The notes beneath the pieces were generated by a model, which was not told the origin of the DNA, made no database searches, and saw nothing but the letters and a program-made list of their open reading frames with translations. The position numbers were made by a program, and so were the translations under genes. Positions 34,736 through 50,344 of a stretch of DNA of 64,000 nt are shown in pieces; position 1 is the stretch's first letter, and the number at the start of each line of letters is the position of its first letter. The DNA is taken from contig CAXXMU010000005.1 in assembly GCA_963667785.2 (NCBI GenBank), forward strand, positions 256,001-320,000, in the 5' to 3' direction. The DNA comes from Alphaproteobacteria bacterium (GTDB lineage Bacteria; Pseudomonadota; Alphaproteobacteria; UBA828).

Positions 34736-35446
34736 CTACCAGGGCAGCTCCTTGCCGTCGTACTGGAAGAAGCGGCCGGTCTGGCCGTCGCCGTAGGCCG
34801 CCACCACCCGGCGAATGCCGGCGATGCTCTCGGGCGGGGTCACCGGCGCTGCCGCGCTGCCCATGTCGGTGCTGACCCAGCCGGGATGAACCGCGAGCGT
34901 GCGCACCCCTCGCGGCGCGAGGTCGATGGAGATCGCCTTGACCAGCAGGTTGAGCGCCGCCTTGCTCGAGCGGTAGGGGTAGAAGTTGCCCTCGGCGAGG
35001 TCCGTGATGCTGCCCATGTGGGTGGACATGAAGAACATCAGCTTCATCTCGCTGGCTGCGACGTGATCGACGAAGGCCTCGGCGACCTTGAGCGGCGCCA
35101 TCGTGTTGATGGCGTGCACCTGCATCCAGTTCTCGTAGTCGAGGGTGCCGAAGGCGCCGGCCGCCTGCTCGTCGATCGCATGCCCGAGCAGGCCTGCATT
35201 GTTGACCAGCATGTCGATCGGCGTGCCGCACAACGCGGCGGCGAGCGCGTCGATCTGCGCGGGCTCGCCCACGTCCAGCGTATGCACCGTGATCGCCCCG
35301 CCCGAGGCTGTGGCAAGCGCGTTCAGCGCGTCCGCGCCGGCCGGGTTGCGGCAGCAGGCGTGGATGCGCCAGCCGTCGTCGCCGAACTGGCGCACCATCT
35401 CGAAGCCGAGCCCCCTGCTCGCACCGGTCACCAGCATCGACGGCAT
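34736..35446 (-). CDS. SDR family oxidoreductase
   Basis: VTGASRGLG, NNAG, YRSSKAAL, HPGWVSTDMG. Confidence 0.92.
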   Translation of the reverse strand: MPSMLVTGASRGLGFEMVRQFGDDGWRIHACCRNPAGADALNALATASGGAITVHTLDVGEPAQIDALAAALCGTPIDMLVNNAGLLGHAIDEQAAGAFGTLDYENWMQVHAINTMAPLKVAEAFVDHVAASEMKLMFFMSTHMGSITDLAEGNFYPYRSSKAALNLLVKAISIDLAPRGVRTLAVHPGWVSTDMGSAAAPVTPPESIAGIRRVVAAYGDGQTGRFFQYDGKELPW

Positions 35447-35616
35447 CGCACGCCTCCCCCCTCGCGCTTCGGGCGGCGGCAGAATAGCGGACCGCGCCCA
35501 GCCGACAAGGGCGCGCGGCAGCGCCTGAGAGGTCGCAGACGTGGAGAGATGGACGTACCGGGCCATTGCCGCAACGGCCCGGCTTGCCTATGGTGCGCCC
35601 CAGCTTGCCGCCGGGA

Positions 35617-35693
<77 letters not shown>

Positions 35694-35865
35694 TCCTGTC
35701 CGAAGCCACTCTGTTCAGCCGCTTGCACTTTGTGAGATAGCGCTGTGGCGATCTTGGCGGTACCGAGGATGGCATTATGAGTGAGAATTGCTTACAGATT
35801 CATGCGGGCCGCTGGGCTCAGGTTTGGTGACGATTCCTTGAGCGCGAAGGCTACGGGTTTATTTC

Positions 35866-36588
35866 ATGAGCGATATAGACAAAGAGACTAATGAATATAC
35901 TGACCTCCCGGACGACCCAGAGATGGCGTTTGCTGTCTTGCAGCAAAGAATGTACGCATCCTTAGAGAACATATGGCGAAATGCGGAAGGTTCTACTCGC
36001 ATACATGAGCAACGATATATCGACATTCTTATTGCTTTCGATGAGGTTCATGATCTCGGAAACCTTACCGCCTTCAAGAACGCGCCAAGCGACAACGAAA
36101 GTTTTCACCAGTTCTTTAGCAGCTTTCGTCGCCAAGTAGAAATTCTATCGCATAAGATCAAGATGGAGGCTGCCCGGAGAGTCAAGACTGGTGAACAGAC
36201 AATTGTTGTCCTTGATACACCAGCGCGAGGAGCGATTCACGCGCTGATCAATGCTATAAGGGAAAAGTTGAACGAACTACAGTTGCCAGAGAACAAGCGT
36301 GAGTCATTATTCGACAAGCTCAATGCATTCGCTGCCGAGGTCGACAGAAATCGCACTCGAACAGAAGCATTTCTTTCCTTTGTTGTCGATGTATCTCGCA
36401 CTGCGGGAGTTGTTAAGAAGGAGCTAGAGCCGCTGCAACAACCGATTGATCGTGTATTGGATTTGATTGAAAAGGCAAATGACAAGCACGATGCGTTGCC
36501 ACCACGCAAAGATCGTAATAGGATTCAAGGTCCGCCCAAGCGTCTTGCCCCTCCCCAGCAAGACCTCGATGACGATATCCCGTTCTAA
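35866..36588 (+). CDS. hypothetical helical protein with SSB-like C-terminal tip (DLDDDIPF)
   Basis: 240-aa ORF in AT-rich DNA; Pro-rich linker then DLDDDIPF-stop. Confidence 0.8.
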   Translation: MSDIDKETNEYTDLPDDPEMAFAVLQQRMYASLENIWRNAEGSTRIHEQRYIDILIAFDEVHDLGNLTAFKNAPSDNESFHQFFSSFRRQVEILSHKIKMEAARRVKTGEQTIVVLDTPARGAIHALINAIREKLNELQLPENKRESLFDKLNAFAAEVDRNRTRTEAFLSFVVDVSRTAGVVKKELEPLQQPIDRVLDLIEKANDKHDALPPRKDRNRIQGPPKRLAPPQQDLDDDIPF

Positions 36589-36615
36589 TCCGGCAATGAA
36601 CTCGCCACAGTGGGC

Positions 36616-36732
36616 ATGAGCCGCCACCACGCCCACCTAAGCGCACACCGCTGGGCCACATTTTAGTGCGTCGCCTTAAAACGCGACGAATGGCAGTGCG
36701 TGCGATGCGGCATGGCCGGGCGCCTAGTATCC
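36616..36732 (+). pseudogene. phage-type HNH endonuclease remnant
   Basis: Translates MSRHHAHLSAHRWATF*CVALKRDEWQCVRCGMAGRL (RD.W.CxxCG pattern) with an in-frame TAG; truncated before the HNH core. Confidence 0.6.
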
Positions 36733-36773
36733 CGTTCGAGACGTTTCCATCTATGTGCGTACCGCCCCCAACA

Positions 36774-36868
36774 CGTCATGGCCGGGCTTGTCCCGGCCAT
36801 CCACGCGTCGGCCCGGCGTCCGGTGGGTCTGGCGGAGGGAGATGCCCGGAACAAGTCCGGGCATGACG
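36774..36868. repeat. alphaproteobacterial REP/RIME-like palindromic element
   Basis: CGTCATGGCCGGGCTTGTCCCGGCCATCCACG...GATGCCCGGAACAAGTCCGGGCATGACG; the two ends are complementary. Confidence 0.75.
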
Positions 36869-36924
36869 AAGAGAAGGGGAGGCCCACTTGGCGCGTGCTG
36901 GCGCACTCCCCTTCGGTCGGCGGC

Positions 36925-39402
36925 TCAGAACCGCATGTTGAGGGTTGCGAAGAAGGTCCGTCCCCAGCCGGCCGCGCGCGGCCCGTCGGTGAACGAGGGA
37001 TTCGCGGTGTTGGTGGAGAGCTTCGCGTCGGTGAGGTTGTAGACGCCGGCGGTGATGCGCGCGTTCTCGAGCCCCAGCGGCTTTCTCCAGTCGAGCGTCA
37101 CGTCGTGGCCGATCCAGGACTTGAACCGTCCGTCGTCCCACCGGTTCTCGATCTCGTCGCGGTAGTTCACGGCCCAGAAGGCGGTGAGGTCGCCGCGCCC
37201 GACCGAGGCCTCGATGCGCACCGCGTTGCGCGGCAGCGGGTACGGCTGCTCGTCGCCTGCGATGCGCTCTTCGCTGCTGGTGACGTAGCGCCAGAACCCG
37301 CGCACGGCGACGAAGCCCCAGCCGGTCTCCTCGCGGGCGCCGAACCGGGTGTTCACCCCCGTGATCTCGGTCTCGACGATGTTTTCGAAGCTGTTGTGGA
37401 TCGTGATTTCCCCGGCCGTGCGCTCGATGCAGTTGCTGCCGCCGCCAGGCGGGCACTCGGGGTGGTTCAGCATCGCCCAGGTGGCGCCCGGCCGCCCCGG
37501 CAGGTCCGAGGTCTTGAGCCGGTACCAGTCGGCGAGTAGGTAGAACGGCCCCTGACGGGTCTCGGCGCCGATGGAGTGCCTCTGCGATCGTGACGGGTTG
37601 AGCGCGGAGTTGCTGCTCGTGAGGCGCGTCACCTGCCGGTAGTTCGTCGTGTCGCACGTGCGCGGCGGCGGCCCGCTCTCCGGGATGCACCGGACATAGG
37701 GGTGGTCCTGTGACGTGGTGCTGTGCAGGACGTGCATGGAGGGCGGACTGTCACCCGCGCTCCACGAGCCGTGCAGCGTCACGATGTCGCTCAGGCGGTA
37801 CTGGGCCCCGAGGCGCCATGAGCGCAGCCCGCCGACGTCGTCGTATTCGCTAGCCGTTGCTGCGGCTCTCAGGTCCACGGTGTCGGCAAGCGGCAGCGAC
37901 ATCTCGCCGAAGGCTCCCACCGCGCCGCGCGCGCCGGCGTAGCTGGTGCCGCCCGATCCGAGCACCCCGTTCACGTCGCGGGTGCTGCCGTCGCCTGCCC
38001 GGAACGCCAGCAGGCTGTGGGCCTCCACGTCGGCGACGTCGACTCCCGCGGTCCATGCCGAGTCGCGCCCGTCGAAGCCCGGCCCGGCGCCCTCGAGCGC
38101 GAAACTCGCGCCAAGATACCTCGAGCCCAGGTCCTGCTCCTCGCGCAGGCTGCTCCTCTCGATCGCTGCCAGGTGGTCCGGATCCTGCGACAGCGGATCG
38201 GCCAGGTCGTACCGTCCGGCCGCGATCTCCTGCCTGATGATCTCGGCGTCCACGAAGGTATCGCCCCTCACCGAGCCGTCGAACCTGTAGGCGGTGACGT
38301 AGGCGTCGTAGCCGAGGTCTTCGCTGAGCCGGCCCTTGACGCTCGCCGAGACGTCGTACTCCTCGTAGCTCCCCCACCAGTCCCGGTTGCCGTGGCCAAT
38401 GAAGCGGTGCCCGATCGCGAAGAAGTCCCCTCCCGTCGCCTCGAAGGGCGAGTCGGCCTCGCGCGCCGATGCGTTGATCGCCTCGAGCAGGCTCGCGCTC
38501 GGGGCGATGGAGAAGACGTCGACCGACGGTGCGTAGCGGAAGGCCGAGCGTCCCTGCGTGGCGTTCGCGTCCACATGGAGCTCGGCGCGCTCTCCGAGCG
38601 GGTGGTCGAGGTTCAGGATCGCGTTGCTCTGGTCGTAGCTGGCGCTGTCCCACCAGACGTTGCCGAAGGCGAACCCGCAGCCCTTGTCGCCCGACTCGAT
38701 TCCCGGCGGGTTGCTGAGCGGGCCGGTGTAGCCGAGCGCCGGGTCGCACGCGCCGAGCGGCACCGTCCTCAGCGCGCGCTCGCTGACGTCGAAGACGAAG
38801 ACGGTGTTGCCGCCGACGCTCACGTTCTTCGCGTCGGCGAAGCTCCCGCCCTCCGTCCACTCCGAGCGGCTGTGCTCGCGGGTGCTGCCCACGATCTCCT
38901 GGCGGTCGAGGATGTCGACGCCCAGGGTCATGTGTCCGCCGTCGCCGATCGCGCCGCCCCATACGACGCTGCCCTGGCGCGCCTCGCCGCCGTCGCGGCT
39001 CGGCATCCGGGCGACGGTGCGCACGTCGAAGCCGTCCAGATCCTTCCGCAGCACGATGTTGATTGCGCCGCGCACCGCGGCGTGGCCGCCGATCGTCCCC
39101 AGGCTCTCGGCTCTCAGCACCTCGATGCGCTCGACCGCCGAGAGCGGGAGGGTGTCCAGATTGGCTGCGGTCGACGCATAGGGGCGCCCGTTGACCAGGA
39201 CGAGCAGGTTGCGCCCTCCGGTGAAGAAGTAGCGGATGATCCCCGTGTCGAGCATTTCGTGGAACGTCTGGGCGCCGGAGCGCTCGATGAAGCCGCGGTC
39301 GTACTCGGCGATGATCTCCGGGGCCGGCCCCAGCCCGTCGGCATGGGCGTGACCCGCCACGAGCATGGCGGTTGCGGCGAGCGCTGCGAGGACTTTTCTC
39401 AT
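36925..39402 (-). CDS. TonB-dependent receptor
   Basis: Signal peptide, plug LVLVNGR..NLDTLPLSAVERIEVL..GAINIVLRK, C-terminal GVYNLTD..GRTFFATLNMRF. Confidence 0.92.
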   Translation of the reverse strand: MRKVLAALAATAMLVAGHAHADGLGPAPEIIAEYDRGFIERSGAQTFHEMLDTGIIRYFFTGGRNLLVLVNGRPYASTAANLDTLPLSAVERIEVLRAESLGTIGGHAAVRGAINIVLRKDLDGFDVRTVARMPSRDGGEARQGSVVWGGAIGDGGHMTLGVDILDRQEIVGSTREHSRSEWTEGGSFADAKNVSVGGNTVFVFDVSERALRTVPLGACDPALGYTGPLSNPPGIESGDKGCGFAFGNVWWDSASYDQSNAILNLDHPLGERAELHVDANATQGRSAFRYAPSVDVFSIAPSASLLEAINASAREADSPFEATGGDFFAIGHRFIGHGNRDWWGSYEEYDVSASVKGRLSEDLGYDAYVTAYRFDGSVRGDTFVDAEIIRQEIAAGRYDLADPLSQDPDHLAAIERSSLREEQDLGSRYLGASFALEGAGPGFDGRDSAWTAGVDVADVEAHSLLAFRAGDGSTRDVNGVLGSGGTSYAGARGAVGAFGEMSLPLADTVDLRAAATASEYDDVGGLRSWRLGAQYRLSDIVTLHGSWSAGDSPPSMHVLHSTTSQDHPYVRCIPESGPPPRTCDTTNYRQVTRLTSSNSALNPSRSQRHSIGAETRQGPFYLLADWYRLKTSDLPGRPGATWAMLNHPECPPGGGSNCIERTAGEITIHNSFENIVETEITGVNTRFGAREETGWGFVAVRGFWRYVTSSEERIAGDEQPYPLPRNAVRIEASVGRGDLTAFWAVNYRDEIENRWDDGRFKSWIGHDVTLDWRKPLGLENARITAGVYNLTDAKLSTNTANPSFTDGPRAAGWGRTFFATLNMRF

Positions 39403-39534: not shown

Positions 39535-39714
39535 TCACTCGGCGGACTTCGGGCGGTCTATGTAGCGGATGCTCACGGGCTTGGTGAGCGCGTCCACAGC
39601 CTCATCGAACGTCGCGTCAACGCGCGTGTCTTCCTCAAGCTCCGCAGCGCTCGGCTGGTAGTCCGGGCTGACAATCTCGACCTCGCGAGGGCTCTGCGGC
39701 TTCTTTGTAGTCAT
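39535..39714 (-). CDS. small hypothetical IS passenger protein (59 aa)
   Basis: MTTKKPQ...DYQPSAAELEED...; TGATG overlap with the HNH ORF, ends next to the TIR. Confidence 0.55.
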   Translation of the reverse strand: MTTKKPQSPREVEIVSPDYQPSAAELEEDTRVDATFDEAVDALTKPVSIRYIDRPKSAE

Positions 39715-41160
39715 CACATAGCTTCCCTTGTCGGATGGGGCTGTTTTCCGCGTTCCTCGTCGAGGAACCGTCCCCAAGCCTTCTGGCCCTTGCGCCCGTT
39801 GCAGTTTCCGCACAAGGCGATCCGGTTGAGCACGTCATCGTCGCCGCCTCGGACATGTGGGATGCGGTGGTCAAGCTCCAGGTCCACGGCTCGGAGCGAT
39901 TTGGAGTCGCAGTAGGGATCGGCGCACTGGCGTCCCTGTCGGGCCCATAGCGCTTGCCGCAGCTTCGCGTCCGGTACATGCGGGATATCCGAGCGCCGCA
40001 GCGTCCTGCGCACCGTGACGGGCTGTATCTGAATGTTGAGACCGGTTTCGTCCGCCAGCCGTTCCAGCGTCACGCTCTCGCAACGGGGTCTATGTCGATC
40101 CCGATCCACTCTCGCCGTAGCTGTTCCGCCGCGACGCACGTTGTGGCGCACCCGGCGAAGGGATCGCACACCGTGTCGCCTTCGTCGGTGGCACATTCGA
40201 TCAGCCGCCGATAGAGTGCAACGGGCTTCCGGGTGGCCCATTCGACATTGCTCGACTCCACCGCCTCCACATCGCTCCAAAGGTCATCGCGCTTCCGCCC
40301 CGGCTGCTCGTCGAGATACCGCTTGAAACGCGGCACGCGGCCCGGCCCGGTCTGCACAATCTGTCCAGCGGCATGGGCGGCCTCCATGCGCTCTTTAGTC
40401 CAGCGCCAAACCCGCGCCACGCCCAAGAACTCATACGTCAGGTTCGGGCGATTGCCCTCCGGGTGTACCAGGTTGTCCAAGGTGTACCGCCTCCCCCCCC
40501 CCCCTCGATTTTCGAGTATTGGGCCAACGTCTTTTCGTCGAGATTGGCCATGTCGTAAGGCTCATGCGACGGGTTCCACTTCCATGTCCGACTTTTCCCG
40601 TAGGCGTAAACAGTGTCGGTAGTGCGAGGCAGGCGCCGGGTCGGATAGTTCTTCGCCGATGCGCGCCGAATCGTGATCTGGTTGATGAACAGCGAGCGCC
40701 CGAACACGGCGTCCAGGATCAACCGGAGATAGGCGTTGGCTGCATCATCGCAATGCAGGAACAGCACGCCGCTCGGCTTGAGCACGCGGTGCATTTCCAC
40801 GATCCGGGGCGCCATGTACGCCAGATAGGCGGTGATGGAGTTCTTGGCGCCGGTCGTGACCTTCCCCGTCCGATGGTCGATCTTGCCGCCTTCGATCACG
40901 GCGGCGGCCTCCACGATCTCCTTGATCGCAGGATGGTCCGACGCAATCACGTCCTGCCATTCGTCCGCTACCTCGTCCCAGCGCCAGCGATCATCGAAGC
41001 GCTGGGCAGCGGAGCGCGAGCTCAGCGGCGCGTTGAAGACGCGCTTGGCGTTGAACGGCGGATCGGTGGCGATGCAGTCCACGAACTCGCTGTTCATGCC
41101 GCGCAGAATGTGGATGTTGTCGGCGACGAACAGCGTGCAATTGCGCCAGTTCGCGGTCAT
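39714..41160 (-). pseudogene. beta-class DNA methyltransferase fused to HNH endonuclease, split by two frameshifts
   Basis: DPPF motif IV (frame 1), TRKP..DPFAGCATT motif I (frame 2), CxxxxC..LDHRIP..RGG..N...CGNCN HNH (frame 3); shifts at the G12 tract (40493-40504) and near 40079. Confidence 0.82.
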
Positions 41161-41395
41161 GCGCTCCGCGCGGCGGACGGCAGCCCATTGTCGGCGATCA
41201 GTTCACGGTAGCGCAGCCGCTTCCCGACCCCGCCATCGGCGACCGCGGCCATCATGTCGATGGTGTCATGCTCCCGCATGTTGTGGCGGGCTGCGAACTC
41301 CTGGACGTAGCGGTCAAGATGCTTCGGGCTGATCTTGTGGAAGGTGCCGGCGTGGCTGCGCTTCAGCGAGGCGCACGATCTGGAGTTCACCCCAA
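41157..41395 (-). pseudogene. IS1595-family transposase C-terminal remnant
   Basis: SLKRSHAGTFHKISPKHLDRYVQEFAARHN...GKRLRYREL signature; N-terminal Zn ribbon and most of the DDE core absent. Confidence 0.88.
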
Positions 41396-41559
41396 CGGTC
41401 AGCTTGGATGGGGAGTGACCTCGCGACACACTATGTCGCAATGCCCGCTCGGCACTTTCCTACATAATCCCCGTTCTCGTGATAGCTCAACGCGAAACAT
41501 ACGCAAATCTCTCGCGTATAAGGCCGCGCTCAGGAAATAGTGCCAGCGGAATGGAGTCC

Positions 41560-46937: not shown

Positions 46938-47503
46938 CGCATCCAGAGTCGACCGCCGCGACACACACGACACAATTCTGCCGAGGCGGCTCCCGCCAGG
47001 AGCACGGACAGTCCCGTGCGATTTCGCAACCCCTTCGTGACACCGGCCCCGGTCGCGACGCGGTGGCCGTTGCGGCGGCCGCGACTGCGTGCGGCATTTC
47101 GTCGAAGAATAGCGGATTGAAGACCGCGGAAGGCTCGGGTGTGACCAACGCGCCGAAAGGCGTCCAGATCGCGCCTCCTGACCGTTCAAACCGTCGGGCG
47201 ATGAAAGCCGTTTTACAATCGGCGTTTAGCCCGAGCGGCGCTTGAGCGGCAGCGCCCGCCGCGCACTTGCGGGGACAGTCCCCGAACCGCCGCGCGGCTA
47301 TCGGTGCGGTCATGCGATCACCACCGCGCCCGCGATGCGTGCCGGTCGTCCGCAACCGGGCTTGCAGCATGCACAGGGCCGCTGCATCGTGACCGGTACA
47401 TGAGCCGAGCGGAGAGACATGCTTCGATGAACGCCGCGTCATCATCCTCGCGCACGACCTGTCGGTGTCACCGGCTCGGGTGTTCGTCGTCGCGGTCGGC
47501 GCG

Positions 47504-50344
47504 ATGACGCCCGGCGCGTTCATCGCCAAGTGGCGAGCGTCCGAGTTGAAGGAACGCTCGGCGTCGCAGGAGCACTTCATCGACCTGTGCCGGCTGCTCG
47601 GCGAGCCTACACCGGCGGAAGCCGACCCGGCGGGCGAGCGGTACTGCTTCGAGCGCGGCGCGCGGAAGGACACCGGCGGCGACGGCTGGGCCGACGTGTG
47701 GAAGCGCGGCTGCTTCGCCTGGGAGTACAAGGGCCGCCGCGCCGACCTCGACGCGGCGTTCAACCAGTTGCGGCAGTACGCGCTCGCGCTGGAGAACCCG
47801 CCGCTGCTGATCGTCTCGGACATGGCGCGGTTTCGCATCCGCACCAACTGGACGAACAGCGTGAGCGTGACGCACGAGTTCACGCTCGACGATCTCGCCG
47901 ACGGCGCGACCCGCGACAAGCTCAAGTGGGCGATGTCGGAGCCGGAACGGCTGCGGCCCGGCGAAACGCGGCAGACGGTGACCGAGCGCGCGGCGGCGAC
48001 CTTCGCGGAGCTTGCCCAAGGCTTGCGGGACCGGGACCACGATCCGCAGGCGGTGGCGCACTTCGTCAACCGTCTGGTGTTCTGCATGTTTGCCGAGGAT
48101 GTGGGCCTGCTGCCCGGCAATATGTTTGCCCGGATGCTGGAACGCACACGGGGCGACCCCGAGAAATTCGCGGACTACGCCTCGCGGCTGTTCGGCGCGA
48201 TGGCCACGGGCGGTGATGTCGGGTTCGAGCCGGTGGCATGGTTCAACGGCGGGCTGTTCGACGACGACACGGCATTGCCGCTCGACCGGGAGGGGATCGA
48301 GACGGCGCTCAAGGCGGCGGTGCTCGACTGGTCGGAGATCGACCCGTCGATCTTGGGCACGCTGTTCGAGCGCGGCCTCGACCCGGACAAGCGTTCGCAA
48401 CTCGGGGCGCACTACACCGACCGCGACAAGATCATGCGGATCGTCGATCCGGTGATCGTCCGTCCGCTGCTTGCCGAATGGAAGACGGCGAAGGCCGAGA
48501 TCGCGGCCACGGTCGAGCGTGCCGACGCCGCCGGCTCGCCCGCAGCGCAGACGCGGCTGCGGCGGCAGGCGGATCGGGCGCTGCGCGCCTTCCTCGAACG
48601 GCTTCGGGGATTTACCGTGCTCGATCCGGCCTGCGGGTCGGGGAACTTCCTCTATCTCGCGCTGCACGCCCTCAAGGACATCGAGCACCGGGTCCAGCTC
48701 GAGGCGGAAACGCTGGGTCTCGCTCGCGGGTTCCCGGCGGTCGGTCCGGCGAACGTTAAGGGCATCGAGATCAACGCCTACGCGGCGGAGCTTGCCCGCG
48801 TGTCGGTATGGATCGGGGAAATCCAGTGGATGCGGCGCAACGGGTTCAGCAACTCGACCGATCCGATTCTCGATCCGCTCGACACCATCGAATGCCGCGA
48901 TGCGATCCTCGCGCCGGACGATGGCGAACCGGACTGGCCGCAAGCCGATGTCGTGATCGGCAACCCGCCGTTCCTGGGAGACCGGGTAATGCGGGGCGGT
49001 CTGGGCCACGAATACACCGAGCGCCTGCGTCGGACCTACAAGGGTTCCGTTCCCGGTTCCGCCGATCTGGTCTGCTATTGGTTCGCCAAGGCCGGGACCT
49101 TGGTGGCCAAGGGCAGCACCGCCCGCGCTGGCCTCGTCGCCACAAACTCCATACGTGGCGGCAACAACCGGCCCGTCCTCGACCGAATCGTCGCCGACTG
49201 CTCTATTTTCGACGCATGGTCGGACGAACCCTGGGTGATCGACGGCGCGGCGGTGCGGGTGTCGCTGGTGTGTTTCGGCCCGCGCGACACGGGCCTTCCC
49301 ATCTCATTGAACGGCGAACCAGCGCCCCATATCCACGCTGACCTTACCGAAGATGGCATCGACCTGACACGAGTCACCCGGCTGGATCGCAACCGCGCGG
49401 TTGCGTTCCTTGGGGTCTACAAGAACGGCCCGTTCGATATTCCGGGCGATCTCGCGCGGGAGTGGCTTCGGCTTCCGGCCAATCCGAACGGTCGTCCGAA
49501 CTCCGACGTTCTCAAGCCGAGGTTCAACGGCATGGACTTGACCCGGCGTCCTGCGGGCAACTGGATCGTCGATTTCGGCGAGGACATGGGCGAGGGCGAG
49601 GCGACATTCTACGAAGCCCCGTTCGCGCACGTCGTCGAGCATGTGAAGCCGGTGCGCCTCGGGAGGCGACGGGAAAGGCACCGCAGATATTGGTGGCGAC
49701 ACGGCGAAACCCGTCCGGGCATGTGGCGCGCGCTCGACGGCCTGCCTCGCTTCATCGCGACCCCGACGGTTTCCAAGCATCGCCTGTTCGTCTGGCTCGA
49801 TGCGGGCGTGTGTCCCGATCACCAGTTGATCGTCATCGCCCGCGACGACGACACGATATTCGGCATCCTGCACAGCCGGTTTCATGAGGCATGGTCGCTG
49901 CGGCTCGGCACCAGCCTTGAGGACCGGCCGCGCTACACGCCGACCACCACCTTCGAGACCTTCCCCTTCCCGGAGGGCCTGTCGCCGGACATCCCCGCCG
50001 CCGAATACGCCGAGGACTCGCGCGCCATCGCCATCGCCGATGCCGCCCGGCGGCTGGTGGACCTGCGCGACCGCTGGCTCAATCCGCCTGAATGGGTGGA
50101 GTGGCTGGACGAACCGGCGCCGGGCTATCCTAAGCGAGCGGTCGCGCGCGGCACGGCGGCCGCGAAGGAACTCAAGGCGCGTACGCTGACCGCTCTCTAC
50201 AATGCCCGACCGCAATGGCTCGCTCAGGCTCACGACGCTCTGGACGCGGCGGTCGCGGCGGCCTACGGGTGGGATGCGGGACTTTCCGACGAGGAAGCGT
50301 TGGAGGAGCTAATTGCCATCAATGCCGAGGCGCATGAATCTTAA
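47504..50344 (+). CDS. type IIL (MmeI-like) restriction-modification enzyme
   Basis: N-terminal ADVW..FAWEYKG..QLRQY PD-(D/E)xK nuclease, GAHYT, LDPACGSGNFL, IGNPPF, C-terminal TRD and LDAAVAAAYGW. Confidence 0.9.
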   Translation: MTPGAFIAKWRASELKERSASQEHFIDLCRLLGEPTPAEADPAGERYCFERGARKDTGGDGWADVWKRGCFAWEYKGRRADLDAAFNQLRQYALALENPPLLIVSDMARFRIRTNWTNSVSVTHEFTLDDLADGATRDKLKWAMSEPERLRPGETRQTVTERAAATFAELAQGLRDRDHDPQAVAHFVNRLVFCMFAEDVGLLPGNMFARMLERTRGDPEKFADYASRLFGAMATGGDVGFEPVAWFNGGLFDDDTALPLDREGIETALKAAVLDWSEIDPSILGTLFERGLDPDKRSQLGAHYTDRDKIMRIVDPVIVRPLLAEWKTAKAEIAATVERADAAGSPAAQTRLRRQADRALRAFLERLRGFTVLDPACGSGNFLYLALHALKDIEHRVQLEAETLGLARGFPAVGPANVKGIEINAYAAELARVSVWIGEIQWMRRNGFSNSTDPILDPLDTIECRDAILAPDDGEPDWPQADVVIGNPPFLGDRVMRGGLGHEYTERLRRTYKGSVPGSADLVCYWFAKAGTLVAKGSTARAGLVATNSIRGGNNRPVLDRIVADCSIFDAWSDEPWVIDGAAVRVSLVCFGPRDTGLPISLNGEPAPHIHADLTEDGIDLTRVTRLDRNRAVAFLGVYKNGPFDIPGDLAREWLRLPANPNGRPNSDVLKPRFNGMDLTRRPAGNWIVDFGEDMGEGEATFYEAPFAHVVEHVKPVRLGRRRERHRRYWWRHGETRPGMWRALDGLPRFIATPTVSKHRLFVWLDAGVCPDHQLIVIARDDDTIFGILHSRFHEAWSLRLGTSLEDRPRYTPTTTFETFPFPEGLSPDIPAAEYAEDSRAIAIADAARRLVDLRDRWLNPPEWVEWLDEPAPGYPKRAVARGTAAAKELKARTLTALYNARPQWLAQAHDALDAAVAAAYGWDAGLSDEEALEELIAINAEAHES

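Follow-up and report, generated by a model that had tools for sequence, protein, structure and literature searches.

Bacteria rely for genome maintenance on the C-terminal tip of SSB as the central docking peptide; it serves chi, PriA, RecO, RecQ, ExoI and others, and it is pursued as an antibiotic target. To our knowledge, the proteins so far described with this tip are all OB-fold SSBs, be they cellular or encoded by phages and plasmids, and our search of the literature yielded no account of the bacterial tip on a scaffold other than SSB. In the available excerpts of two sources, the C-terminal hexapeptide of SSB is presented as an interaction motif (PMC5872125) and a phage 'SSB-like protein 0087' as an OB-fold protein that ends in DDIPF (bioRxiv 10.64898/2026.10.27.754916).

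The protein family considered here resembles bacterial SSB (PF00436) in carrying acidic and hydrophobic end residues after a flexible linker. However, SSB has an OB fold and a Gly-rich linker and is essential and universal, whereas the family proteins have no OB fold, no predicted ssDNA binding and a Pro/Lys linker, and are accessory and patchily distributed. Phage and plasmid SSBs with a host-type tip are, as the family proteins may be, products of mobile elements able to address host SSB partners, but they are OB-fold ssDNA binders. There is also a likeness to the short-linear-motif mimicry of pathogens and selfish elements, in which a host hub docking peptide likewise reappears on a scaffold of other origin and stays host-matched. 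In the excerpts available of that literature, the mimicry described mostly involves eukaryotic-host motifs in effectors and viruses, whereas the motif here is the bacterial SSB tip.

The member from which we started is encoded in the window (the whole stretch of DNA that was analysed, 64,000 nt) at 35866..36588 of the plus strand. Read from its ATG, it is a protein of 240 aa whose C-terminal end is ...LPPRKDRNRIQGPPKRLAPPQQDLDDDIPF-stop, the last 8 residues being DLDDDIPF. The locus comprises the following features.

35617..35693, plus strand: tRNA-Arg (anticodon CCG), found by ARAGORN; genus synteny stops at its 3' end
35694..35865, no strand: upstream non-coding stretch of 172 nt, specific to the source genome, with matches in 0/20 relatives
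35866..36489, plus strand: helical body, residues 1-208, acidic, pI 5.3
36490..36561, plus strand: linker, residues 209-232, basic and Pro/Lys-rich, pI 11.6
36562..36588, plus strand: SSB-type acidic tip, residues 233-240 (DLDDDIPF), plus the stop codon
36589..36718, no strand: downstream stretch of 130 nt, specific to the source genome, which closes the islet
36719..36884, no strand: one copy of a multi-copy genus repeat of ~150 nt, not specific to the islet

The ORF is the first gene 3' of the tRNA-Arg, at a spacing of 172 nt. Its homologues conserve residues 9-22 (NEYxDLPDDPExAF), which favours the ATG at 35866 over the internal Met20, the start used by the 221-aa database gene call P0002. 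The GC content of the gene is 0.475, as compared to 0.69 and 0.67 in the 5-kb flanks, and its GC3 is 0.48, against 0.82-0.92 in the adjacent SDR/GlnA-like and TonB-receptor genes. The earlier note had described an AT-rich, helical protein of 240 aa, first after tRNA-Arg and ending in DLDDDIPF, a description borne out by the ORF, ARAGORN, GC3 and the AlphaFold2 model presented below.

The gene was found in 0 of 40 relatives, including 0 of 20 from the same genus. The relatives align to the window over 34800..35693/35697, with nothing past the tRNA end, and they gave zero alignment between query positions ~930 and ~1817; the islet, ~1.0 kb long, spans 35694..36718. In each of the 12 genus genomes searched, the repeat that follows the islet (query ~1920-2085) was matched dozens of times at 75-90%, and it is also present elsewhere in the source genome (G000). 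Since the gene is absent from the 40 relatives and the last syntenic position coincides with the 3' end of the tRNA, the gene is horizontally acquired, as the earlier note had proposed. The position is that of an insertion at a tRNA 3' end, the relatives' synteny breaking at 35693/35694. No direct repeat of the tRNA end was found within 17 kb or near the gene, no integrase domain occurred among the ORFs scanned at 36-64 kb of the window, and a search for inverted repeats flanking the gene gave none. Across the family, gene GC was lower than locus GC in 7/7, 26/26 and 11/11 loci of three locus sets, and the gene was AT-rich in every host examined.

A promoter scan revealed no consensus promoter upstream of the ATG. 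The exact alphaproteobacterial LexA box (GTTC-N7-GTTC or GAAC-N7-GAAC) was absent upstream of the window gene and present in 2 of 57 family upstream regions. When 53 such regions were compared, no common k-mer rose above shuffled controls, except for a motif limited to a resolvase-linked sub-group.

Prediction from the single sequence with AlphaFold was unusable (pLDDT 51.6) and was replaced by a model based on an alignment of 136 rows. This AlphaFold2 model, with a mean pLDDT of 90.8, contains six long helices (residues 18-39, 45-61, 77-107, 118-137, 142-159 and 167-208), nothing beyond two 2-residue bridges by way of strands, and no OB fold. A Pfam search of the protein gave nothing at E≤0.01, Foldseek gave nothing against PDB at E≤0.001 and nothing against the BFVD viral models, and the best hit of the profile against PDB sequences (E 0.062) was noise. 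In the protein atlas, residues 1-208 matched only unnamed 'hypothetical protein' clusters, with no named look-alike. The wide VIA-align search retrieved only generic helical bundles, matching residues 116-213 with Z≤11.6. Four-helix bundles such as the C-terminal region of YicC, DGR Avd, LemA and the talin rod superpose on these residues (8ver_A, Z 11.2 and rmsd 2.0 over 89 residues; Avd chains, Z 9.7-9.9), at 7-12% identity and with the N-terminal half outside the superposition. Any helical bundle would be expected to score this high, and we draw no functional inference from the Z values.

These data also bear on the notion that the protein is an SSB so divergent that its OB fold has become unrecognisable in sequence. 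A phage SSB family, phrog_18154, does align weakly with the protein, over residues 217-240 only (E 0.03-0.3). Given the confident all-helical model, fold searches that return helical bundles only and the lack of any PF00436 or other SSB Pfam match in the 136 family members, we find this notion scarcely credible. The earlier note's view of the body as something other than an OB-fold SSB was upheld by the same three results.

Body motifs conserved in the family are LPDDPExAF (residues 14-22) and KRxxLxxKLNAFxxEVDRxRTRxEA (residues 144-168), and the conserved polar residues include R121, R132, K144, R145, E158, D160, R163 and T164. The acidity of the body and its lack of a recognisable domain are observations that speak against the reading we favour below. 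A prediction with two copies returned homodimer scores of 0.00 and 0.00, no evidence either way. We also considered a membrane protein and rejected it, only 2 of 136 members reaching a Kyte-Doolittle 19-residue mean of 1.6.

The terminal tip is the best-conserved segment of the family, at 2.93 bits per column versus 1.27-2.01 in the body. Its conservation in homologues had been named beforehand as a test, and the outcome was positive: of 120 close homologues, 109 end in the full tip, [DE][DE]x[ILVMT]PF, as do 92 of the 148 more distant cluster representatives, 20 others of which have a looser form. It is kept down to 25-35% identity, where the length and sequence of the linker differ. In G000 (4.09 Mb), just 3 of the 32,621 stop-to-stop frames of at least 60 aa end in [DE][DE]x[ILVM]PF, namely two SSB genes and the 240-aa ORF, the sole non-SSB one. 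This rarity, together with conservation across the family, indicates that the tip is more than chance. Some members do without it: ~24 of the tipless proteins among the 148 representatives are at least 200 aa long, and the members in genomes G486, G915, G1077 and G960 lack the tip, meaning that the body can persist on its own, which speaks against the reading we favour below. A 655-aa 'open frame' in G960 was discarded as a high-GC artefact around a tipless member of ~225 aa.

The linker has a motif of its own, L211-P212 ... K218-x-I220-E221-G222-P223 (L-P..K-x-I-E-[GP]-P), in which L211, I220 and P223 are conserved, P223 being present in 130 of 136 members. The suggestion that the SSB linker had been copied along with the tip did not hold, because the linkers of host SSBs are Gly-rich whereas that of the family is basic, Pro/Lys-rich and marked by this motif. 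An exception is the member in genome G1105, whose linker is Gly-rich and SSB-like. The window copy itself carries R214 and Q221 at two linker positions where at least 90% of the close subfamily have W and E (W214R and E221Q), a departure that counts against the reading we favour.

DLDDDIPF is identical over all 8 residues to the tips of two SSB paralogues of G000, and this agreement with the resident SSB extends to other hosts. For 22 genomes with a tipped member, 176 terminal residues were compared with those of the host's top-scoring SSB, and 139 were the same, against a permuted mean of 118.6; at the variable positions (-12..-7 and -4) there were 60 matches against a mean of 30.7, values reached in 0 of 20,000 permutations each in a test that ignores phylogeny. 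The residue before IPF, D or E, agrees between family member and host SSB in 20 of the 22 genomes. The last 8-12 residues are those of the host SSB in G000, G171, G196, G1115 and G1105, and 11 of 12 terminal residues match in G1210. The tip is thus both conserved and under selection, and it follows the SSB tip of the resident host. A point against the reading we favour is that, should host lineage structure the variants of the SSB tip as well as the subclades of the family, the choice of partners in gene exchange, and not selection, could explain part of the match.

The G1105 member ends in 12 residues that are all found at the end of the host SSB, and 33 of its last 36 bases coincide with those of the host ssb, with no similarity upstream of this 3' patch. 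The shared residues and bases point to a tail captured from the 3' end of the host ssb. As a general cause of tip identity, recent gene conversion was rejected, since the tip codons differ synonymously from those of ssb in G000, G171, G196 and G049; such conversion is supported in G1105 only and perhaps in G1210.

The host matching is also what makes it quite improbable, in our estimate, that the tip has nothing to do with SSB partners and serves instead as a degradation tag, as an intramolecular latch that engages the basic linker or the body of the protein itself, or to bind the OB fold of SSB, its likeness to SSB being convergent or incidental. That the AlphaFold confidence in linker and tip is unusually high for a tail (block means 76, 82 and 66) could reflect docking back on the body, and a strongly basic linker next to an acidic tip would suit such an arrangement. 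Yet the match goes beyond the core motif and includes near-identical ssb DNA in G1105, which would be difficult to account for if the two tails were not read by the same host factors. An intramolecular latch would moreover be compatible, as a form of regulation, with our main explanation, and is hence no true rival to it.

Our main explanation, to which we assign a probability of roughly 55%, is that the protein is a soluble, all-helical, non-DNA-binding scaffold that displays an SSB tip and serves SSB partners as an adaptor or re-targeting factor. It probably plugs into the SSB recruitment network without binding DNA. Its tip, held on a Pro/Lys linker of ~30 residues, would copy the C-terminal tip of the host SSB (D-L-D-D-[DE]-I-P-F) and dock in the sites, made of a hydrophobic pocket and a basic ridge, at which the SSB tail is bound by SSB-interacting proteins. 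As the protein has no OB fold, partner engagement would be uncoupled from ssDNA, and when abundant the protein may compete with SSB. The conserved body of 200 residues and the linker motif may, as a conjecture, supply a second binding function, and the conserved polar residues of the body and the conserved residues of the linker argue for one that is specific. The gene is an accessory one with a high turnover; it moves horizontally as a single gene, and its tip is held in agreement with the resident SSB, apparently in one or more cases through recombination with the 3' end of the host ssb. What we observed is the anatomy, the class of fold, the conservation of the tip throughout the family and its host matching, a patchy and decaying distribution, and neighbours that are not conserved; both the binding to SSB partners and the role of adaptor rather than inhibitor are what we infer.

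Candidate docking partners in the source host include the Pol III chi subunit and PriA, both found with Pfam models in this 98%-complete genome. Of the partners that the earlier note had named, these two are accordingly available, whereas ExoI (PF08411) and RecQ (PF16124) gave no Pfam match there. A family of hundreds of sequence clusters puts the SSB tip on an unrelated helical scaffold, tuned to each host; if our main explanation is true, the SSB hub would be addressable by proteins that never touch ssDNA, and the family would offer a natural tool to perturb SSB-partner interactions in Alphaproteobacteria. The question it raises is that of the ligand of the conserved body.

The family comprises 667 clusters at 50% identity. 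It is unnamed, and had no significant match in Pfam, NCBIfam or PHROGs. Its distribution is patchy, with the gene in 2-5% of the alphaproteobacterial genomes sampled, and stops, splits or fragments affected it in 8 of the 31 genomes with a match. None of 50,697 phage records contained it, nor did any IMG/VR viral contig in a pattern-limited scan; 3 of 72,556 plasmid records carry it, all with distant members at 25-28% identity. A search for fused or longer forms of 421-2000 aa found none, which is weak evidence.

A patchy gene that is often broken fits something costly or only transiently useful, as would a pure competitive inhibitor, in effect a free SSB tail that titrates SSB-interacting proteins off SSB-coated ssDNA and whose body serves only folding, stability or regulation. 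Dampened replication restart, repair or recombination would then profit the mobile DNA that carries the gene, or serve growth arrest. The host-matched tip, the lack of a DNA-binding fold and the AT-richness in every host examined agree with this. A mere carrier, however, would need no 200-residue body with conserved polar residues nor a linker motif, full-length members without the tip exist, and no antitoxin-like or regulator neighbour is conserved, so we hold pure inhibition to be unlikely.

The gene lies in variable or defence-type regions. At roughly half of the loci it forms a single-gene islet flanked by housekeeping genes; examples are an islet within a urease cluster, one that follows pnp and one that separates a sugar kinase from a dehydratase. 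No partner gene is conserved: when 175 neighbour ORFs were compared all against all by BLAST, the only matches were between duplicate copies of one locus (L063=L064, L078=L081 and partly L068, L086=L087). Of the two settings in which the earlier note had proposed to look for clustering of homologues, tRNA ends proved rare, just 3 of 49 other loci having a tRNA within ~700 nt upstream, while defence-type or mobile-element neighbours do occur, at a minority of loci.

PADLOC-positive neighbours were present at 7 loci (L044, L068, L083, L087, L014, L107 and the window), as a raw count, and TIR, OLD and PIN neighbours add two loci to this set, whereas many other loci hold housekeeping genes alone. 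At L044, a CapP/RmrA-like protease lies directly upstream, accompanied by a CBASS cyclase and SIR2; L068 has a retron-type RT-Toprim plus a resolvase, L087 a PDC-M05 pair and L083 DNA methylases near the family gene. A TIR protein lies 5 nt upstream at L074, and an OLD-family nuclease and a PIN protein are nearby in G798. Two Methylobacterium plasmids (L107, L108) have a type IIG R-M plus PLD, and AbiJ. The gene of the window lies 3 kb from an HNH endonuclease plus methylase and 11 kb from an MmeI-type R-M.

Such surroundings, along with a rapid turnover and an AT-richness that resemble those of defence genes, are what one would look for in an anti-phage or anti-plasmid guard or decoy, whose tip would confer immunity either by baiting foreign proteins that target the SSB tail or by directing nucleases and helicases of the host against incoming DNA. 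We nonetheless rate this as distinctly unlikely, given that no PADLOC model matches the protein (0 families of PADLOC-DB 2.0 at E≤10), that it has no effector domain and no conserved effector neighbour, and that about half of the loci are the single-gene islets just mentioned. A broader idea, possible in our view albeit with the odds somewhat against it, is that of a hitherto undescribed, mobile 'SSB-tail display' class of non-DNA-binding scaffolds, host-matched partly via recombination with the ssb 3' end, which would enter the SSB interaction hub and so redirect or withhold replication-restart and repair enzymes as a hijacker or an immune decoy. If true, it would amount to prokaryotic hub-motif mimicry in conflicts between genomes and mobile DNA.

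Some neighbours are replication genes, which is in favour of our main explanation, but the association was noticed post hoc and amounts to 4 immediate neighbours among ~45 independent loci. The gene directly upstream of the family gene is ssb in G842 and parC in G564, dnaB lies directly downstream at L069 and dnaX is adjacent at L043. In addition, uvrA is nearby at L089, and in G049 the family gene adjoins ssb-gyrA-coaD.

Two features in the window concern us here, an ORF and the tRNA gene before it:

35617..35693, + strand, tRNA-Arg(CCG), on the same strand as the ORF and 172 nt upstream of it
35866..36588, + strand, SSB-tip ORF, intact, with an ATG start, 240 codons and a product ending LPPRKDRNRIQGPPKRLAPPQQDLDDDIPF-stop

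Translation, the tRNA call and base composition bore out what an earlier note had reported from the sequence alone, namely an AT-rich ORF after tRNA-Arg with an SSB-type ending, DLDDDIPF. G+C runs at 64–78% in the window and drops to 55% in the kilobase containing the ORF, which itself has 47.5% G+C and a GC3 of 0.48, versus 0.82–0.92 for the neighboring SDR/GlnA-like and TonB-receptor genes. The public gene call (P0002) is 221 aa long and starts at Met20 of the ORF; conservation of residues 9–22 in homologues points instead to the ATG at 35866 as the real start. The source genome (G000) has 32,621 stop-to-stop frames with a length of 60 codons or more; 31 of them end in PF and three in [DE][DE]x[ILVM]PF, these three being two SSB genes and the ORF; the SSB-type tip is no chance ending. 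The family gene is present in G000 in one copy.

Searches of Pfam, NCBIfam, PHROGs and PADLOC gave no match to the ORF product, and the end of phrog_18154, a phage SSB profile, aligned weakly with the C-terminal 24–43 residues only (E 0.03–0.3). An AlphaFold model based on a 136-row family alignment (mean pLDDT 90.8) comprises six long helices, with beta structure limited to two 2-residue bridges, and Foldseek gave no match to it in PDB or BFVD at E ≤ 0.001. In a wide structural search, all matches were to generic helical bundles, over residues 116–213 (best Z 11.6; 8ver_A, Z 11.2, rmsd 2.0 over 89 residues), and by the tool's own calibration such Z scores are uninformative for helical proteins. 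The body, with a pI of 5.3 (family median 5.2), is acidic and lacks transmembrane segments. An OB-fold SSB identity was ruled out because the model is all-helical, the acidic, non-membrane body matches no SSB family in Pfam and its fold matches are generic bundles, in agreement with the earlier failure to recognize an OB fold by eye.

A word-indexed protein search yielded 206 proteins at E ≤ 1e-3, the best 120 of which are 54–100% identical to the ORF product and almost all about 240 aa long; an exhaustive search yielded 667 clusters (50% identity) at E ≤ 1e-3, 334 of them at ≤1e-10. The few named members are "hypothetical protein" entries from Alphaproteobacteria (Rhodopseudomonas, Pelagibius, Methylobacterium, a MAG), and a search for longer members found no fused or longer form. 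The last eight residues carry the most information per alignment column (2.93 bits), ahead of the N-terminal LPDDPExAF motif (2.64) and the C-terminal bundle (2.01). With a full tip defined as [DE][DE]x[ILVMT]PF, the endings were distributed as follows:

120 close homologues: full tip, 109; looser acidic..PF ending, 3; no tip, 8
148 newly listed cluster representatives (25–63% identity): full tip, 92; looser acidic..PF ending, 20; no tip, 36

The 36 tipless representatives include 12 fragments shorter than 200 aa and about seven visibly decayed tips (for example DDDIAF, DDEISF and DDDIPD), the rest having other endings. Judging from these counts (109/120 close and 92/148 distant sequences with a full tip), the conservation that the earlier note proposed to look for is strong, albeit short of universal.

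The linker columns L211, I220 and, above all, P223 (130/136) are among the best conserved of the family, and the linker carries a motif, L-P ... K-x-I-E-[GP]-P, which is duplicated in some members; this region is more than a featureless spacer. The SSB linkers of G000 are Gly-rich and lack the motif, so the earlier suggestion that the SSB linker had been copied fails, the tip alone being common to both. The window copy itself has R214 and Q221, versus W and E in at least 90% of its subfamily.

G000 contains five PF00436 genes, two of which share their last eight residues, DLDDDIPF, with the ORF product. These SSB-family genes lie at C8:60144–60452, C5:30570–30878, C9:9185–9493, C1:975281–975577 and C1:953731–954024 (loci L021–L025); of the other three, one ends in PSDEIPF, one in DIEDPPF and one without an acidic tip, and the extra ssb copies may belong to integrated elements.

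For a broader comparison between family tips and the top-scoring SSB of each genome, we used all drawn genomes having a family member with an acidic-PF ending (n = 22), a sample that leaves out the genomes with a tipless member (G486, G915, G957, G960 and G1077). The residue before IPF is D or E, each in about half of both sets, and it was the same in member and host SSB in 20/22 genomes (binomial P of at least 20/22 at p = 0.5, ~6e-5). The mismatches were G158 and G1138, the latter a 710-contig assembly whose only SSB match is atypical. With host relatedness ignored in the permutations, 139/176 of the last eight residues were identical to the host SSB (permuted-host mean 118.6; at least 139 in 0/20,000 permutations), and the variable positions −12..−7 and −4 gave 60, versus a mean of 30.7 (60 reached in 0/20,000). 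Individual cases are listed below.

Endings of host SSB and family member in five genomes
G196: host SSB GPLDDDIPF; family member GPLDDDIPF
G1115: host SSB DIDDDIPF; family member DIDDDIPF
G696: host SSB DLNDEIPF; family member DVNEEIPF; rare Asn at −6 in both
G1210: host SSB SFDKELDDEIPF; family member SFDKDLDDEIPF
G1105: host SSB GFDKALDDEIPF; family member GFDKALDDEIPF

In G1105, the family gene and ssb are identical at 33/36 terminal bases, with no similarity farther upstream, and the family member has a Gly-rich linker resembling that of an SSB; we read that as a capture of the ssb 3′ end through recombination. Synonymous differences separate the tip codons from those of ssb in G000, G171, G196 and G049; here the match is maintained at the level of the protein. 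SSB-tail mimicry, the core of the earlier note, is strengthened by the family-wide conservation, the host matching and the one tail capture.

The family is sparsely distributed. It was matched in 0/40 relatives of G000 (20 of the same genus included), in 9/401 genomes of a class-wide even draw and in 6/401 of a phylum-wide draw, all within the same class (G000 counted in both draws), as well as in 2/50, 1/11 and 19/401 genomes of the orders of G196, G158 and G486, respectively. Internal stops, splits or fragments affect the gene in 8/31 matching genomes (G056, G295, G486, G954, G957, G1026, G1109 and G1147), and its G+C is below that of the surroundings at all loci examined (7/7, 26/26 and 11/11). 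It was absent from 50,697 phage records and was not found in a pattern-limited scan of IMG/VR; 3/72,556 plasmid records carry it, all as distant members with the tip retained.

Comparison of neighbor ORFs revealed no recurring gene family, except where a locus was represented in duplicate. The neighborhoods form three groups: (i) variable, defense or mobile-element regions, (ii) replication and repair genes, and (iii) islets consisting of the family gene alone amid unrelated housekeeping genes (for example, in a urease cluster, after pnp, or in a sugar kinase/dehydratase interval).

Neighbors of the family gene in groups (i) and (ii)
L044 (1810–7655), (i): CapP/RmrA-like protease directly upstream; CBASS cyclase and SIR2
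L068 (2058–5249), (i): retron-type RT-Toprim and resolvase
L078 (1898–3192), plasmid pMSC49d, (i): resolvase
L074, (i): TIR protein 5 nt upstream
L083, (i): methylases
L087, (i): PDC-M05 pair
L056 and L057, (i): DUF4145 proteins
L060, (i): Replic_Relax
L019, (i): ParE
L015, (i): IS1595
L107 (5650–10437) and L108 (5650–10436), (i): type IIG R-M, PLD, AbiJ
G798, (i): OLD nuclease and PIN
Window, (i): HNH endonuclease, methylase and IS1595 fragment at 39.5–41.4 kb; MmeI-type enzyme at 47465..50344
G842, (ii): ssb 56 nt upstream, in tandem
G564, (ii): parC 33 nt upstream
L069, (ii): dnaB directly downstream
L043, (ii): dnaX-recR adjoining
L089, (ii): uvrA close by
G049, (ii): ssb-gyrA-coaD adjoining

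At L044, a metagenome locus, the family gene lies between an HTH and M78-peptidase protein, with strong RmrA/CapP-type PADLOC matches, and the CBASS-type cyclase and SIR2 protein. A small serine recombinase (resolvase) directly adjoins the family gene at L068, L078 and L106 (9022–10387), and the two could form a small mobile module; at L068 the resolvase stop overlaps the family gene start, with the RT-Toprim gene just upstream. On two Methylobacterium plasmids (L107, L108) a distant tip-bearing member directly precedes the genes for a type IIG methyltransferase-restriction enzyme of 937 aa and a protein of the phospholipase D family.

The family gene is mobile, short-lived and stand-alone, and its product combines an acidic helical body, a basic motif-bearing linker and a host-matched SSB tip. 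This tip would fill the SSB-tail pockets of SSB-interacting proteins. Pfam models detected the chi subunit and PriA in G000 (a 98%-complete assembly), but not the ExoI C-domain or the RecQ zinc-binding domain; consequently, the likely partners differ from the E. coli-based list of the earlier note. Because the protein has no ssDNA-binding fold, the tip would be displayed independently of ssDNA. The main rivals are a pure inhibitor and an immune decoy. Conservation of both body and linker argues that the protein is more than a titrator, and its best reading is a predicted adaptor, which would recruit SSB partners to the binding target of the body, or alternatively an autoinhibited competitor.

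Searches of the full-text literature, supplementary files aside, found no SSB-type tip described on a non-OB bacterial protein. The nearest described case is a phage SSB-like protein (10.64898/2026.10.27.754916) with an OB fold and a DDIPF ending, whereas the ORF product is all-helical. SSB-tip-mediated recruitment as such is known; the scaffold carrying the tip here belongs to no known kind.

Similarity between the window and the genus relatives (80–86% identity) covers the SDR gene and tRNA-Arg and ends at 35693/35694. Positions 35694..36718 have no counterpart in 20 relatives, and in the 15 kb past tRNA-Arg in three relatives one dispersed-repeat copy is the sole match to the window, so the tRNA-Arg 3′ end is a genus synteny breakpoint and a hotspot for variable DNA. 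No integrase, tRNA-end repeat or flanking inverted repeat was found at the window locus. A tRNA lies within ~700 nt upstream at only 3/49 other family loci; the tRNA site is therefore no family hallmark, and the clustering at such sites raised earlier did not materialize. Downstream of the ORF are the following:

36719..36884, one copy of a ~150-nt repeat that occurs dozens of times per genome in the genus
39714..40280, − strand, HNH endonuclease
40438..41160, − strand, N6/N4 DNA methylase
41157..41441, − strand, IS1595-type transposase tail
47465..50344, + strand, MmeI-type (type IIG) restriction-modification enzyme, 959 aa
50344..51141, + strand, low-GC 265-aa ORF of no known family, its start overlapping the stop of the MmeI-type enzyme

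Copies of the repeat, 75–90% identical, occur in every genus genome searched and elsewhere in G000; the repeat, which includes a GC-rich palindrome, resembles a REP- or MITE-type element. Positions 39535–41441 form a small low-GC block, followed up to ~43 kb by ORFs with no family match. Several genus genomes have, at other places, up to three copies (86–88% identity) of the 3′ portion of the TonB-dependent receptor gene adjoining the islet (36925–39402), a member of a paralogous, mobile-looking receptor family.
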